This document shows, piece after piece, positions 8,238-41,572 of a DNA stretch of 64,000 nt (within the stretch, counting starts at the first letter, position 1; every line of letters starts with the position of its first letter). Made by a program: the position numbers and the translations under genes. The notes beneath the pieces are model-generated. The model saw only the letters and a list, made by a program, of their open reading frames with translations. It searched no databases and was not told the origin of the DNA. The stretch lies in NCBI RefSeq assembly GCF_055900595.2, contig NZ_CM148325.1; one strand, 5' to 3'.

Positions 8238-8375
8238 CGTGTAATGGCTGCATGAAATAAACAATAAAATATAAATAACATTATCAGCCTGCCGACGGCT
8301 TGAAGAGAGTCACAGTATCTTGTGCAACATTATTGGAAAGAGTGAGGGGGCGAGGTAGCGAAGCGGAAAAATGTT

Positions 8376-8481
8376 AAAAAAAAGCCCATCGTGGGAGATG
8401 GGCAAAGACTACACACAGCAATTCGTTGTTTCACTCAGGGGATTTCCATGCTTATAAATCAATATGTTGATTTATAACCGT
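8376..8481 (-). ncRNA. rprA: RprA small regulatory RNA (rpoS translational activator)
   Basis: Minus-strand sequence ACGGUUAUAAAUCAACAUAUUGAUUUAUAAGCAUGGAAAUCCCCUGAGUGAAACAACGAAUUGCUGUGUGUAGUCUUUGCCCAUCUCCCACGAUGGGCUUUUUUUU recognised as RprA; ends in a GC hairpin plus U8 terminator; located between ydiK and ydiL. Confidence 0.9.
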
Positions 8482-13100: not shown

Positions 13101-13221
13101 GCAGCGACTGCCGCGTAACCGCTGTCTGGCGACCGGATATTCCTGTCGCGGCCAGGTAAAACGGGTTGAAGGCACGGGGGTACGCCATCCTGTGCAGGCT
13201 TTACTGGAGATTATTAAATGA
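10165..13221 (+). CDS. ydiJ: large FAD-linked oxidase fused to Fe-S/CCG domains (1018 aa)
   Basis: 1018-aa ORF; N-terminal FAD-binding oxidase region, C-terminal ferredoxin-like CLACKACSTQCP and GCCGMAG motifs; ATGA overlap with menI. Confidence 0.9.
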   Translation: MIPQISQAPGVVQLVLNFLQELEQQGFTGDTATSYADRLTMSTDNSIYQLLPDAVVFPRSTADVALIARLAAQERYSSLIFTPRGGGTGTNGQALNQGIIVDMSRHMNRIIEINPEEGWVRVEAGVIKDQLNQYLKPFGYFFAPELSTSNRATLGGMINTDASGQGSLVYGKTSDHVLGVRAVLLGGDILDTQPLPVELAETLGKSNTTIGRIYNTVYQRCRQQRQLIIDKFPKLNRFLTGYDLRHVFNDEMTEFDLTRILTGSEGTLAFITEARLDITPLPKVRRLVNVKYDSFDSALRNAPFMVEARALSVETVDSKVLNLAREDIVWHSVSELITDVPDKEMLGLNIVEFAGDDETLIDERVNALCARLDELIASQQAGVIGWQVCRELAGVERIYAMRKKAVGLLGNAKGAAKPIPFAEDTCVPPEHLADYIAEFRALLDSHGLSYGMFGHVDAGVLHVRPALDMCDPQQEILMKQISDDVVALTAKYGGLLWGEHGKGFRAEYSPAFFGEELFAELRKVKAAFDPHNRLNPGKICPPEGLDAPMMKVDAVKRGTYDRQIPIAVRQQWRGAMECNGNGLCFNFDARSPMCPSMKITQNRIHSPKGRATLVREWLRLLADRGVDPLKLEQELPESGVSLRTLIARTRNSWHANKGEYDFSHEVKEAMSGCLACKACSTQCPIKIDVPEFRSRFLQLYHTRYLRPLRDHLVATVESYAPLMARAPKTFNFFINQPLVRKLSEKHIGMVDLPLLSVPSLQQQMVGHRSANMTLEQLEVLNAEQKARTVLVVQDPFTSYYDAQVVADFVRLVEKLGFQPVLLPFSPNGKAQHIKGFLNRFAKTAKKTADFLNRVAKLGMPMVGVDPALVLCYRDEYKLALGEERGEFNVLLANEWLASALDSQPVATVSGESWYFFGHCTEVTALPGAPAQWAAIFARFGAKLENVSVGCCGMAGTYGHEAKNHKNSLGIYELSWHQAMQRLPRNRCLATGYSCRGQVKRVEGTGVRHPVQALLEIIK

Positions 13222-13628
13222 TATGGAAACGAAAAATCACCCTGGAAGCACTGAATGCAATGGGTGAAGGAAACATGGTGGGGTTGCTGGATATTCGCTT
13301 TGAACATATTGGTGATGACACCCTTGAAGCGACAATGCCAGTAGACTCGCGGACAAAGCAGCCTTTCGGGTTGCTGCATGGAGGGGCATCCGTGGTATTG
13401 GCCGAAAGTATCGGTTCCGTTGCCGGTTATTTATGTACCGAAGGTGAGCAAAAGGTGGTTGGTCTGGAAATCAATGCTAATCATGTTCGCTCGGCACGAG
13501 AAGGGCGGGTACGCGGCGTATGTAAACCGTTGCATCTCGGTTCACGTCATCAGGTTTGGCAGATAGAAATCCTCGATGAGAAAGGGCGTTTGTGCTGTTC
13601 GTCACGATTGACGACAGCCATTTTGTGA
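13218..13628 (+). CDS. menI: 1,4-dihydroxy-2-naphthoyl-CoA thioesterase, hotdog fold (136 aa)
   Basis: 136-aa ORF MIWKRKITLEALNAMGEGNMVGLLDIRFEH...; start overlaps the ydiJ stop. Confidence 0.9.
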   Translation: MIWKRKITLEALNAMGEGNMVGLLDIRFEHIGDDTLEATMPVDSRTKQPFGLLHGGASVVLAESIGSVAGYLCTEGEQKVVGLEINANHVRSAREGRVRGVCKPLHLGSRHQVWQIEILDEKGRLCCSSRLTTAIL

Positions 13629-13727
13629 CGTTGTCACCAGAAAAATGTGACGCATATTGCTTTTGGTCATTATCTGCACAGTAAACGGTGGTATACTGTG
13701 CAGGTCTTGTCTAAAAGCGAGGATGCT

Positions 13728-13916
13728 ATGTCTACTCAACTTGATCCCACCCAGCTGGCCATTGAATTTTTACGCCGTGACCAAAGCAATCTTTCACCTG
13801 CCCAATATCTCAAACGTCTGAAACAATTAGAACTTGAATTCGCTGACTTGCTTACTCTCTCTTCTGCTGAATTAAAAGAAGAAATCTACTTTGCCTGGCG
13901 TTTGGGCGTGCATTGA
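13728..13916 (+). CDS. ydiH: small protein of unknown function (62 aa from MSTQLDPTQ)
   Basis: ATG at 13728 within ORF 13647..13916; synteny between menI and sufA. Confidence 0.7.
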   Translation: MSTQLDPTQLAIEFLRRDQSNLSPAQYLKRLKQLELEFADLLTLSSAELKEEIYFAWRLGVH

Positions 13917-14054
13917 TCCTGACGTAATGCCGCGAGTTCGCCAAATCGGCCTGGATTAATCTTCGTCCAGGTTCGAGGGCCTTCTTAATACTGCTTATCT
14001 ACCCGCCTGATAACGTTCAAAAATAATACAAATCGCAGTTTGTGCTAAAACGGC

Positions 14055-14177
14055 GGCTTAGCTTTATGAGACTATTCTTATCGCCCCTTCGAGCTAAGCC
14101 ACTGTGAGTGCCGGAGATAAGCGCCGGATGGGGTAGAAACCCTTAAGCCTGTGATGCACAGACTTAAGGGTTTTCTT
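14055..14177 (+). ncRNA. Candidate small RNA locus ending in a strong intrinsic terminator (position matches rydB; sequence not verified)
   Basis: Nested inverted repeats (gcttagc/gctaagc, cttatc/gataag) followed by an 11-bp perfect stem aaacccttaag/cttaagggttt and a T-tract; about 220 nt downstream of ydiH and 290 nt upstream of sufA. Confidence 0.35.
14137..14177 (+). terminator. Rho-independent terminator (11-bp perfect stem plus T-tract)
   Basis: aaacccttaag-N15-cttaagggtttt followed by cttatttc; U-tract only on the + strand. Confidence 0.7.
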
Positions 14178-14267
14178 ATTTCTGAACGCTGCACTTTTTT
14201 ACCTATCTCTTAAATAGTCATTTTCAATACAACTTTTTCTTTTTCATCACAGCCTTAATGCTCCTTA

Positions 14268-14283
14268 GATAATAATCATTATC
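14268..14283. promoter_or_regulatory. Distal Fur-box-like motif (GATAATAATCATTATC)
   Basis: Shares the 12-mer ATAATCATTATC with the promoter-proximal site 133 bp downstream; matches Fur consensus GATAATGATAATCATTATC. Confidence 0.45.
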
Positions 14284-14403
14284 TAACAATGAGATACCTA
14301 ATTCTTAGCGTGCCTGTTAACCCACACATCAGGGTCTATGCTTATTAAAAGCAGGCAAAAAGCATGTTTTACGGTAAAGCCCCTGCGTTTGCTGGGTTGA
14401 ACT

Positions 14404-14416
14404 GATAATCATTATC
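14404..14416. promoter_or_regulatory. Promoter-proximal Fur box of the suf operon, overlapping the core promoter (TTGAAC -35-like just upstream)
   Basis: GATAATCATTATC about 47 bp upstream of the sufA ATG; suf operon is a known Fur target. Confidence 0.7.
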
Positions 14417-14462
14417 ACTAACATGCTGTTATACGCTGAAAGCGATGAAGTGAGGTAAATCG

Positions 14463-14831
14463 ATGGACATGCATTCAGGAACCTTTAATCCACAGGATTT
14501 CGCCTGGCAGGGTTTAACGCTGACACCCGCAGCCGCTGTCCACATCCGTGAGCTGGTGGCAAAGCAACCAGGTATGGTCGGCGTGCGCTTAGGCGTGAAG
14601 CAAACGGGCTGCGCGGGATTTGGCTATGTGCTCGACAGTGTTAGCGAGCCAGACAAAGACGATCTGCTGTTTGAACATGACGGCGCGAAGCTGTTTGTCC
14701 CGCTGCAAGCGATGCCGTTTATTGATGGCACGGAAGTCGATTTCGTTCGTGAAGGACTTAATCAGATATTCAAATTTCACAACCCGAAAGCCCAGAATGA
14801 ATGTGGCTGTGGCGAAAGCTTTGGGGTATAG
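14463..14831 (+). CDS. sufA: Fe-S cluster A-type carrier (122 aa)
   Basis: 122-aa [21 protein letters not shown]..., C-terminal CGCGESF motif. Confidence 0.95.
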
Positions 14832-19975: not shown

Positions 19976-20123
19976 ACTAAAGGGACAGCTTTCATCCGGT
20001 TGACTCACATTGCCGGGTGGTCAATGTTTACACTGGCCTGCACAGGAGTGTTTTGGTTTCAGGTGAACATAAGCGCCATCCGACGTTTCAGCGTGAGTCT
20101 CCGGCAAATACAGGAGGTTTACA

Positions 20124-21128
20124 ATGAAACGCGCGTCTTTGCTTACACTCACGCTTATCGGCGCTTTTAGCGCCATTCAGGCTGCCTGGGCGGTTGATTA
20201 TCCGCTACCACCAACCGGAAGCCGACTGGTTGGGCAAAATCAAACGTATACGGTGCAAGAAGGGGATAAAAACCTTCAGGCCATCGCCCGACGTTTTGAT
20301 ACTGCGGCAATGTTGATACTTGAAGCCAATAACACTATCGCTCCGGTGCCAAAACCCGGTACGACGATAACGATTCCTTCGCAACTGTTATTGCCTGATG
20401 CGCCGCGTCAGGGGATTATCGTTAACCTTGCAGAGCTGCGCCTTTATTATTATCCGCCGGGAGAAAATATCGTGCAGGTCTATCCGATAGGTATTGGATT
20501 GCAGGGGCTGGAAACGCCGGTGATGGAAACGCGTGTGGGGCAGAAAATCCCTAATCCAACCTGGACGCCAACGGCGGGCATTCGTCAGCGTTCGCTGGAG
20601 CGTGGCATTAAATTACCGCCCGTCGTTCCTGCCGGGCCAAATAACCCGCTAGGACGTTACGCACTGCGCCTCGCGCATGGTAATGGCGAATACCTCATTC
20701 ATGGCACCAGTGCGCCGGACAGCGTCGGTTTGCGCGTCAGTTCAGGGTGTATTCGCATGAATGCACCGGATATTAAAGCCTTGTTCTCCAGCGTGCGGAC
20801 GGGAACGCCGGTGAAAGTGATCAACGAACCGGTGAAATATTCTGTGGAGCCTAACGGGATGCGTTATGTGGAAGTGCATCGACCACTATCAGCAGAAGAA
20901 CAGCAGAACGTTCAGACAATGCCTTACACACTGCCAGCAGGCTTCACGCAATTTAAAGATAATAAGGTTGTAGATCAGAAGTTAGTCGATAAAGCGTTGT
21001 ATCGTCGGGCAGGGTATCCAGTTGCCGTGAGCAGTGGAGCAACTCCCGCAGCCAGCAATGCGCCTTCAGTAGAGTCAGCGCAGAATGGTGAACCAGAACA
21101 AGGGAATATGTTACGCGCGACGCAGTAG
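20124..21128 (+). CDS. ldtE: L,D-transpeptidase with LysM and YkuD domains (334 aa)
   Basis: 334-aa ORF with signal peptide and catalytic HGTS...SSGCIRM motif; synteny next to lpp. Confidence 0.9.
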
Positions 21129-21146
21129 CGGTAAATGGCAGGCAAA

Positions 21147-41019: not shown

Positions 41020-41063
41020 TCCATTTCACTCCAGACCCTAACTTCAGCTCCTGCAAAATCGCA

Positions 41064-41079
41064 AGGTAAACGTTTGCCT
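41064..41079. promoter_or_regulatory. PurR operator-like site (aGGTAAACGTTTGCCt) in the purR leader
   Basis: Matches the pur-box core GCAAACGTTTGC at 11/12 positions; about 45 bp upstream of the purR start; purR is autoregulated. Confidence 0.55.
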
Positions 41080-41317
41080 TTACACACCTTACGCACAACA
41101 AAAGTGTTGCGGTACGCCGGAAAAACGACACGGAGCGTCAGGAAGGGGTCAATGGCCAGTACGCAAATAGTGTAAGCGTGGAATTTTGGCCGATCTTGAC
41201 GAAAAGGGGAAGTGGTAAAAACACTTATCATTATAAATGACGGGAGATTTTTTCATCACAGTGTGTAAAAATGCGTAATATCACTTTTTGTGTGGTAATA
41301 AAAAAGGAGAAAACTTG

Positions 41318-41407
41318 ATGAGCACCGACCTTAAATTTTCACTGGTAACAACGATTATCGTCCTCGGTTTGATCGTAGCCGTGGGTTTGACTGCCGCGCT
41401 GCACTGA
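41318..41407 (+). CDS. ynhF: 29-aa hydrophobic small membrane protein (MSTDLKFSLVTTIIVLGLIVAVGLTAALH)
   Basis: ATG at 41318 preceded by AAAAAGGAGAAAA RBS; single TM helix; followed by hairpin cgagggag/ctccctcg; absent from the ORF track because it is under 60 aa. Confidence 0.75.
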   Translation: MSTDLKFSLVTTIIVLGLIVAVGLTAALH

Positions 41408-41572
41408 TTTCCTCTCGAGGGAGCGCGTTCTCCCTCGCATCTCCTTCCTGTTTGTTAGCAAAATGGCAAAAGTGTTTTCTCTTTTTGTTATTTTCATTTT
41501 TTTGTGATTGCTGTCATGCTTTCGCCACTTTAATGAATATCGCGTAATGACGCGAAGAGGTGGAGATAAGGC

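Follow-up and report, generated by a model that had tools for sequence, protein, structure and literature searches.

At the locus studied here, menI (13218-13628), ydiH and sufA (14463-14831) follow one another on the + strand of a 64,000-nt stretch of DNA, hereafter the window, and an intergenic gap of 546 nt separates ydiH from sufA. The ydiH gene is 189 nt long, equal to its K-12 counterpart. The layout is identical to that of K-12 MG1655, where the curated small RNA gene rydB (b4430, 68 nt) occupies the ydiH/sufA gap on the strand of both genes. Coordinates of the features discussed below are collected in Table 1.

Table 1. Features of the rydB unit and of the preceding gene ydiH (window coordinates)
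Feature	Position	Strand	Basis or remark
ydiH coding sequence	13728..13916	+	62 aa + stop; open reading frame list and K-12/PGAP annotations; outside the rydB unit
Conserved upstream promoter block (candidate), TTTGTGCTAAAA	14039..14050	+	-44 to -33 from the inferred start
Extended -10 (inferred): TG 14067-68, A, hexamer GACTAT 14070-75	14067..14075	+	invariance and spacing from the TSS
Inferred transcription start, G of GCCCC	14083	+	homologous to the Salmonella dRNA-seq TSS
Mature RydB RNA, 59 nt (61 nt in K-12)	14083..14141	+	RF00118, 71.7 bits; K-12 Term-seq 3' end by alignment
P1 closing helix, 5' strand GCCCC	14083..14087	+	pairs with 14130-14134
Invariant single-stranded segment TTC[AA]GAGCTAAGCC	14088..14100	+	unchanged in 15 orthologs
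Invariant internal hairpin GCCGGAGATAAGCGCCGG	14110..14127	+	stem 14111-14/14124-27 plus G14116-C14122; Rfam consensus
P1 closing helix, 3' strand GGGGT	14130..14134	+	compensatory changes
Long terminator-type hairpin	14136..14174	+	18 pairs, one C.A mismatch, loop ATG 14154-56
U-tract TTTTCTTATTTCT	14171..14183	+	pairing of its first four T's with the basal GAAA of the hairpin is feasible

The locus is rydB

At curated thresholds, scanning the whole window against Rfam gave a match to RF00118 (rydB) at 14083-14141 on the + strand, covering the model from end to end (1-61 of 61) with 71.7 bits against a gathering score of 50 (E-value 7e-15), and a permissive rescan of 13900-14470 returned no family besides rydB. 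A previous reading of this DNA, made from the sequence only (hereafter, the sequence-only reading), had proposed a probable rydB locus here and an Rfam scan as the check. That identification is borne out by the full-length match, which lies neither elsewhere nor on the opposite strand, by pairwise alignment of K-12 b4430 to window positions 14071-14136, and by the synteny ydiH - rydB - sufA, shared with K-12 together with the strand. Over the full model, sequence and consensus structure are those of known RydB (b4430, also called tpe7 or IS082), except that the window copy is without two A's of the CUUCAAGAGC segment. Of 5,426 complete E. coli genomes, 5,420 carry the segment, in single copy; matched places per genome for the 126-nt rydB segment have a median of 1 and a maximum of 2 among these 5,420 genomes. 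A repetitive extragenic palindrome (REP) was considered as an alternative identity and is ruled out by the single copy.

Since annotation of rydB dates from 2001 and an Rfam family is devoted to it, the window locus is a re-identification of a known gene. Its boundaries are refined here to a promoter at 14039-14075, a start at 14083, a mature 3' end at 14141, and a terminator at 14136-14183. We consider it highly probable that the interval holds the complete gene of this known small RNA, as an independent transcription unit with its own promoter and terminator hairpin.

Distribution of the unit among enterobacteria

We fetched 78 species-representative loci by a ydiH anchor, that is, independently of the RNA, and searched them for the unit with BLAST and with a purpose-built covariance model, R1, comprising the closing helix, the internal hairpin, and the terminator hairpin. 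The unit occurs in Escherichia coli, E. albertii, E. whittamii, and two further Escherichia species; in Salmonella arizonae, diarizonae, and enterica; in Citrobacter amalonaticus, two further Citrobacter, and one assembly labelled C. freundii; and in one Leclercia and Pseudenterobacter timonensis. It is missing at the other 64 ydiH loci. In Enterobacter and Kluyvera, whose ydiH and sufA genes lie apart, a search for rydB ahead of sufA was likewise negative. Twelve of the 13 species with sufA directly after ydiH have rydB, Intestinirhabdus alba (L019) being the exception, and the gene is absent where other genes have been inserted directly after ydiH. The distribution of rydB is genuinely patchy across the phylogeny.

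The order of parts is constant in every carrier: a TTTGTGYTAAAA block, a variable spacer of 13-14 nt, ATGAGAnnAT(TCT), the RNA core, and a long hairpin, which in all 16 orthologs begins 1-2 nt past the RydB closing helix. The ATGAGAnnAT(TCT) block is invariant, and the core is nearly so, save for a linker of 3-5 nt.

Transcription start and promoter

The dRNA-seq table for Salmonella SL1344 lists a TSS for RydB, with a -50..+1 string that ends ...TATTCTTATG (quoted also as ...TTTATGAGATTATTCTTATG); the register of these strings, in which the last base is +1, was verified on the entries for RybB and RydC. By alignment, the Salmonella TSS, a G, corresponds to window position 14083, which equals position 1 of the Rfam model. 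Both ends are assigned in the window by homology, the start being taken from Salmonella and the 3' end from K-12. In K-12 the curated rydB (NC_000913.3, 1764713-1764780) starts 12 nt upstream of the TSS homolog and ends 5 nt before the Term-seq 3' end described below. Given the TSS homolog at 14083, the 5' end in the K-12 database (window 14071) is not a start site.

Two conserved blocks precede the start. In the upstream one (14039-14050), T14039, T14043, G14044, and A14047-49 are unchanged in 14 orthologs, a variable 13-nt spacer comes next, and ortholog L082 has the version TTTATGTTAAAT; the block is a candidate -35-region or UP-like element, or else a candidate regulator site. In the downstream block, ATGAGA and TAT are unchanged in 14 orthologs (the hexamer of L082 is GAACAT), and TG-A-GAnnAT is unchanged in 15 orthologs although the spacer varies. 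Counted from 14083, TG lies at -16/-15 in E. coli and at -15/-14 in Salmonella, followed by one base and by GAnnAT, which retains the critical A and T of a -10. From this spacing to the Salmonella dRNA-seq TSS we infer that the TG-n-GAnnAT block is an extended -10. The hexamer GACTAT is weak (3/6), and a two-hexamer promoter scanner called no promoter at rydB.

The core of the RNA

The mature RNA is closed by a helix, P1, whose pairing is maintained by compensatory changes: AUCCC/GGGAU in ortholog L030, GCUCC/GGAGC in L034, ACCCC/UGGGU in L004, and a change from G-U to G-C in Salmonella. Within it, all five pairs of the internal hairpin are constant in 15 sequences, so that covariation neither supports nor refutes this structure, and the fold of the 59-61-nt core is no better than that of shuffled sequences (z of -0.3 and 0.0). 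An invariant, non-covarying internal hairpin in a core with z near 0 fits sequence-specific recognition, by protein or by pairing.

The two A's missing from the window copy of the invariant CUUCAAGAGC segment would lie between 14090 and 14091. Neither the 5,420 complete E. coli genomes (best match 126/128) nor the 15 orthologs carry the same deletion. Two explanations offer themselves: a mutation private to this copy, affecting a single-stranded block that is otherwise conserved, or a fault in the assembly.

The core also contains a direct repeat, GAGNTAAGC, at 14091-14099 and 14114-14122 (GAGCTAAGC / GAGATAAGC), both copies of which are invariant across genera. With about 0.14 such repeats expected by chance per 59-nt RNA, the repeat is weak evidence, and it could represent two sites for one binding partner.

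Two potential small proteins overlapping the RNA were rejected. One would begin at the ATG at 14066, but the TSS lies downstream of this ATG, and the 2-nt indel and the 3-5-nt linker shift its frame between orthologs; the same indel and linker break the frame of the other, an antisense open reading frame (14078-14194, 38 aa).

A long terminator-type hairpin conserved in structure

The sequence-only reading had described an 11-bp perfect stem, about 220 nt past the ydiH stop, with a T-tract behind it. The description is accurate: aaacccttaag (14137-14147) and cttaagggttt (14163-14173) are fully complementary, the ydiH stop ends at 13916 with the stem beginning 221 nt on, and the T-rich tract follows (Table 1). 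The 11 bp are the basal part of a hairpin that extends further, with arms of 17 nt (14137-14153 / 14157-14173) and a 3-nt loop; C14148.A14162 is its single mismatch, and G14136.U14174 makes the 18th pair. The tail after the hairpin (14136-14174) reads UUUUCUUAUUUCU. Folded alone, the hairpin reaches -22.0 kcal/mol, as compared with -7.1 +/- 2.5 kcal/mol in shuffled sequences (z = -6.06), and none of 200 shuffles was as good.

The hairpin has the makings of an intrinsic terminator, namely a stable, G+C-containing stem-loop with a U-tract directly after it, and RepRanger labels it a Rho-independent terminator. Pairing of an A-rich 5' flank with the U-tract is typical of intrinsic terminators. 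A terminator scanner did not call the window hairpin because of the one internal mismatch; it did call the mismatch-free ortholog of E. albertii, as an 18-pair terminator.

Comparison of the orthologs reveals extensive turnover of the stem. Five lineage-specific stem sequences occur (AACCCUUAAG...; GAAGCCCUUAAGAUUAC...; AACGGUCAGAAC...; GAACGGUCAGCGCUG...; AAAAGACGAUCGG...), and the hairpin pairs in every ortholog, with energies from -17 to -36 kcal/mol and a stem of 17-20 bp in every lineage. Standard pairs make up 95.7% of the cells of a 15-sequence alignment, as against 82.4 +/- 1.0% in shuffles and 26-55% in slid registers; the alignment was fitted to the structure, which inflates pairing somewhat, and independent folds of each sequence give the same helices. 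Both sides have changed in 15 of the 28 pairs; the hairpin contributes 13 of its 18 pairs, the closing helix (where 96% of cells are paired) 2 of its 5, and the internal hairpin none. These data demonstrate, or come close to demonstrating, that the hairpin is conserved as a structure and not as a sequence. A U-rich tail follows it in 14 of the 16 orthologs; the other two, Citrobacter NCU1 and Awk4, combine a perfect 19-bp hairpin with a poor U-tract (GUUCGUUGGU). The poor U-tract of these two is a hint of selection on the hairpin for another task, in addition to termination or in its place; together, the stem length of 17-20 bp and the retention of the hairpin in the two Citrobacter suggest selection on the duplex beyond termination.

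A separate observation concerns the 5' arm, in which 14143-14156 forms a 14-nt inverted repeat (93%) with 14245-14258 in the suf upstream region. Long-range pairing of the two as an alternative to the hairpin was rejected, the arm being altered in orthologs L004 and L003 with the distal copy left unmatched.

The 3' end of the mature RNA

In the K-12 Term-seq tables the 3' end assigned to RydB is 1764708 on the - strand (...GGATGGGGTAGAAAC[C]CTTAAGCCTG), with 2.17 and 4.14 million reads, counts that are comparable to those of tRNA rows and more than 10-fold over those of the lpp terminator. In these strings position 51 is the called end, as checked on tRNA rows. The end ...GGGGUAGAAACC, i.e., ...GGGGTAGAAAC[C] (...GAAAC[C]), aligns to C14141 of the window, which lies 7 nt past the closing helix and 5 nt inside the 5' arm of the hairpin; the 3' end of the Rfam model is the same as this Term-seq end.

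The curated K-12 Term-seq tables list no 3' end in 17646xx, where the U-tract lies. In Salmonella, rydB was given as 105 nt, that is, from the start to just beyond the U-tract (Sittka et al., 2008). Sequence features and this Salmonella length lead us to infer that transcription terminates at the hairpin, and the lack of listed 3' ends at the U-tract could reflect fast processing.

Alternative readings of the interval

The sequence-only reading had taken 14055 as the beginning of the interval and had seen in its 5' part nested inverted repeats, which would make a single structured RNA of about 120 nt (14055-14177), folded at its 5' side through these repeats. The repeats, gcttagc (14056-62) / gctaagc (14093-99) and cttatc (14077-82) / gataag (14116-21), are indeed present, but their arms interleave (i<k<j<l) and do not nest. 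The minimum-free-energy structure computed for 14055-14185 (z-score of -4.4) does contain a pairing between 14055-64 and 14091-14100, and the K-12 annotation begins 12 nt before GCCCC, but that z-score is due to the terminator alone, and the homolog of the Salmonella TSS lies well inside the interval, which moves the 5' end from 14055 to about 14083. With this start, gcttagc and cttatc are not transcribed within RydB, and the left arms of both repeats sit before the transcription start, in promoter DNA. Inverted pairs of 6-7 bp are at chance level here (15 per 401 nt). The stretch 14051-14063 is the most variable of the locus and its supposed partner is invariant, so that the pairing is not conserved; in cttatc, a T is replaced by G or C in Leclercia, Citrobacter NCU1, and Pseudenterobacter, with no compensating change. 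Lying before the TSS, unconserved, uncompensated, and mutually crossing, the upstream repeats are ruled out as RNA structure, and the ~120-nt RNA built on them is scarcely credible. A second reading makes the hairpin mainly the terminator of a long ydiH 3' UTR, from which RydB would be carved with no promoter of its own. The hairpin is on the same strand as ydiH, 221 nt past its stop; the only terminator-like site directly after ydiH (13960-13979, 6 pairs) is weak, and K-12 Term-seq lists no ydiH 3' end; moreover, mature RydB is clearly 3'-processed. Against these points, the Salmonella dRNA-seq table places a primary 5' end on the first base of GCCCC, and a promoter-like block with a variable spacer stands before the unit in all 16 orthologs. 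In L082, where ydiH is absent (tblastn negative), promoter block, core, hairpin, and a strong U-tract are found 100 nt after menI; in L013 and L016 the unit lies about 400 nt from ydiH, compared with the usual ~170, with all parts intact; and in Salmonella a convergent transporter gene has been inserted after the hairpin and not before it. A unit without ydiH, a doubled spacing, and the position of the Salmonella insertion mean that the hairpin travels with rydB. Its own TSS, its conserved promoter block, and its occurrence without ydiH set RydB apart from a small RNA derived from the ydiH 3' UTR, an origin that we regard as very improbable. The suggestion in the sequence-only reading that the terminator could equally serve ydiH is thereby lost as an equal option, the hairpin being tied to rydB in L082, L013, and L016; what survives of it is a possible secondary role as an extra stop for ydiH read-through.

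A further reading accepts RydB as the owner of the hairpin and differs over its task: the hairpin would be chiefly a processing or recognition element, a long substrate for a nuclease or other protein that sets the RydB 3' end, and transcription may stop elsewhere or read through. It draws on the stem of 17-20 bp kept in every lineage despite complete sequence turnover, on a dominant 3' end that falls within the stem with none listed at the U-tract, and on the perfect 19-bp stem and poor U-tract of Citrobacter NCU1 and Awk4. Canonical U-rich tails directly after the stem in 14 of 16 orthologs, the A-rich 5' flank that pairs with the U-tract, the scanner's call of the E. albertii ortholog, and a Salmonella annotation ending just beyond the U-tract all favor termination. 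The two roles are mutually compatible, and we think it unlikely that processing is the chief one.

Proposed biogenesis

In the preferred reading, that of an independent unit closed by its own terminator, the extended -10 (TG-A-GACTAT), together with the block at -44 to -33, directs transcription from G14083. The autonomy of the gene, its promoter region and start, the covariation of the closing helix and of the terminator-type hairpin, and an abundant RNA with its end inside this hairpin are established or nearly so; the later steps are proposed. RNA polymerase would stop at the U-tract, at about 14178-14183, to give a precursor of roughly 97-100 nt, which agrees with the 105-nt annotation in Salmonella, and rapid cleavage or trimming of this precursor would leave a stable, very abundant RNA of 59-61 nt that lacks the terminator and ends at C14141. 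The cutter may be a double-strand-specific endonuclease such as RNase III; alternatively, an endonucleolytic cut could be followed by a 3' exonuclease that stalls at the closing helix. An RNase III-type enzyme would be the simplest agent because the end lies within a long, near-perfect duplex, with about 12 stem positions from the cut to the loop. The supplements of Gordon et al. (2017) on RNase III cleavage have no rydB entry.

Hfq, targets, and kindred RNAs

The literature classes RydB as Hfq-independent, and in an Hfq co-IP it was marginally enriched (10 vs 4 reads). Papers on RydB describe an effect on rpoS expression in multicopy, assorted changes in expression, and persister phenotypes; in Salmonella, RydB is among the ppGpp-repressed RNAs, together with SsrA and SsrS.

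Pairing of RydB with the rpoS leader was tried and rejected: a whole-length duplexfold gave z = -3.2, but stricter tests were negative, since 54 of 300 shuffles attained the longest contiguous match (11) and 7 of 60 background segments equalled the best 16-nt window (-23.4 kcal/mol). Duplexfold likewise gave no signal for pairing with the sufA 5' UTR or the ydiH mRNA.

Hfq-dependent small RNAs use their terminator and U-tail. With a 3' end in the 5' arm, before the U-tract, and marginal co-IP, RydB falls outside this class. Trans-acting small RNAs of the class, such as RprA, which is encoded 5.6 kb away in the window, resemble RydB in being free-standing intergenic genes with their own promoter, hairpin, and U-tract, and in having a reported multicopy effect on rpoS expression. 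RydB differs from them in a mature form without terminator hairpin or U-tail, in its marginal Hfq co-IP, and in showing no significant complementarity to the rpoS leader. Mature RydB is most likely Hfq-independent and would act through its invariant blocks, by protein binding or by pairing.

M1 RNA of RNase P, tmRNA, and 6S RNA are stable RNAs that lose their terminator in 3' maturation. They encode an intrinsic-terminator hairpin past the mature 3' end, and their mature form is very abundant, terminator-less, and bounded by a helix between its 5' and 3' ends, all of which RydB shares. Unlike them, RydB is only about 60 nt long, occurs in a restricted set of enterobacterial genera, and is not known to have a protein partner or a function.

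Surroundings of rydB

Some 20 nt past the U-tract, the upstream regulatory region of suf begins. Within it, CTATCTCTTAAATAG at 14203-14217 is conserved across genera, and we take it to lie in the OxyR-binding area. The rydB terminator may also, as a secondary effect, shield this region from read-through of rydB and ydiH, and insulation of the suf promoter from a heavily transcribed neighbor is a plausible second role for the hairpin. The suf promoter region further contains a 9+9 palindrome at 14265-14286 (TTAGATAAT/ATTATCTAA) and a Fur-box-like GATAATCATTATC at 14404-14416, 47 nt upstream of the sufA ATG.

The menI-ydiH-rydB stretch (13441-14170) is a mosaic block of divergent sequence: in one strain, identity to the window is 100% at 20000-32000 and at 14171-14512 but only about 96% over 13441-14170. 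That identity resumes exactly past the rydB hairpin suggests a recombination boundary at the terminator.

Other RNA matches in the window include RprA at 8374-8481 on the - strand (RF00034, 118.5 bits, full length) and STnc550 at 41020-41410 on the + strand (RF02081, 396.5 bits, full length). The last third of STnc550 is unstructured in the model, and this part of the match could be coding sequence. Two tRNA genes lie at 32273-32427 on the - strand, and an 'HPnc0260 antisense RNA' match lies at 32146-32308 on the + strand; its high-scoring 3' part is the reverse complement of one tRNA, and the match is probably a family artefact and not a real antisense RNA.

A proposed route to a terminator-less RNA

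Drawing these strands together, we tentatively propose that RydB is a very abundant, terminator-less RNA of about 60 nt produced by an RNase III-like cut between C14141 and C14142; that the length of the stem may be conserved for this reason; that the invariant blocks CUUCAAGAGCUAAGCC and GCCGGAGAUAAGCGCCGG, which have the repeat GAGNUAAGC in common, may form a protein-binding or decoy surface and not an Hfq-dependent seed; and that the K-12 coordinates would be wrong at both ends. We hold this combined proposal to be possible, if somewhat short of probable. In practical terms, constructs for deletion or overexpression made from the curated K-12 coordinates would include promoter DNA and miss the native 3' end, and automated annotation (PGAP) leaves rydB out of the records examined, which under the match carry ydiH only, or nothing. 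The RydB 3' end ranks with the most abundant ones of the E. coli Term-seq tables that have been published; its abundance and its terminator-less form make its biogenesis, and the conserved long stem, a small and cleanly testable question.
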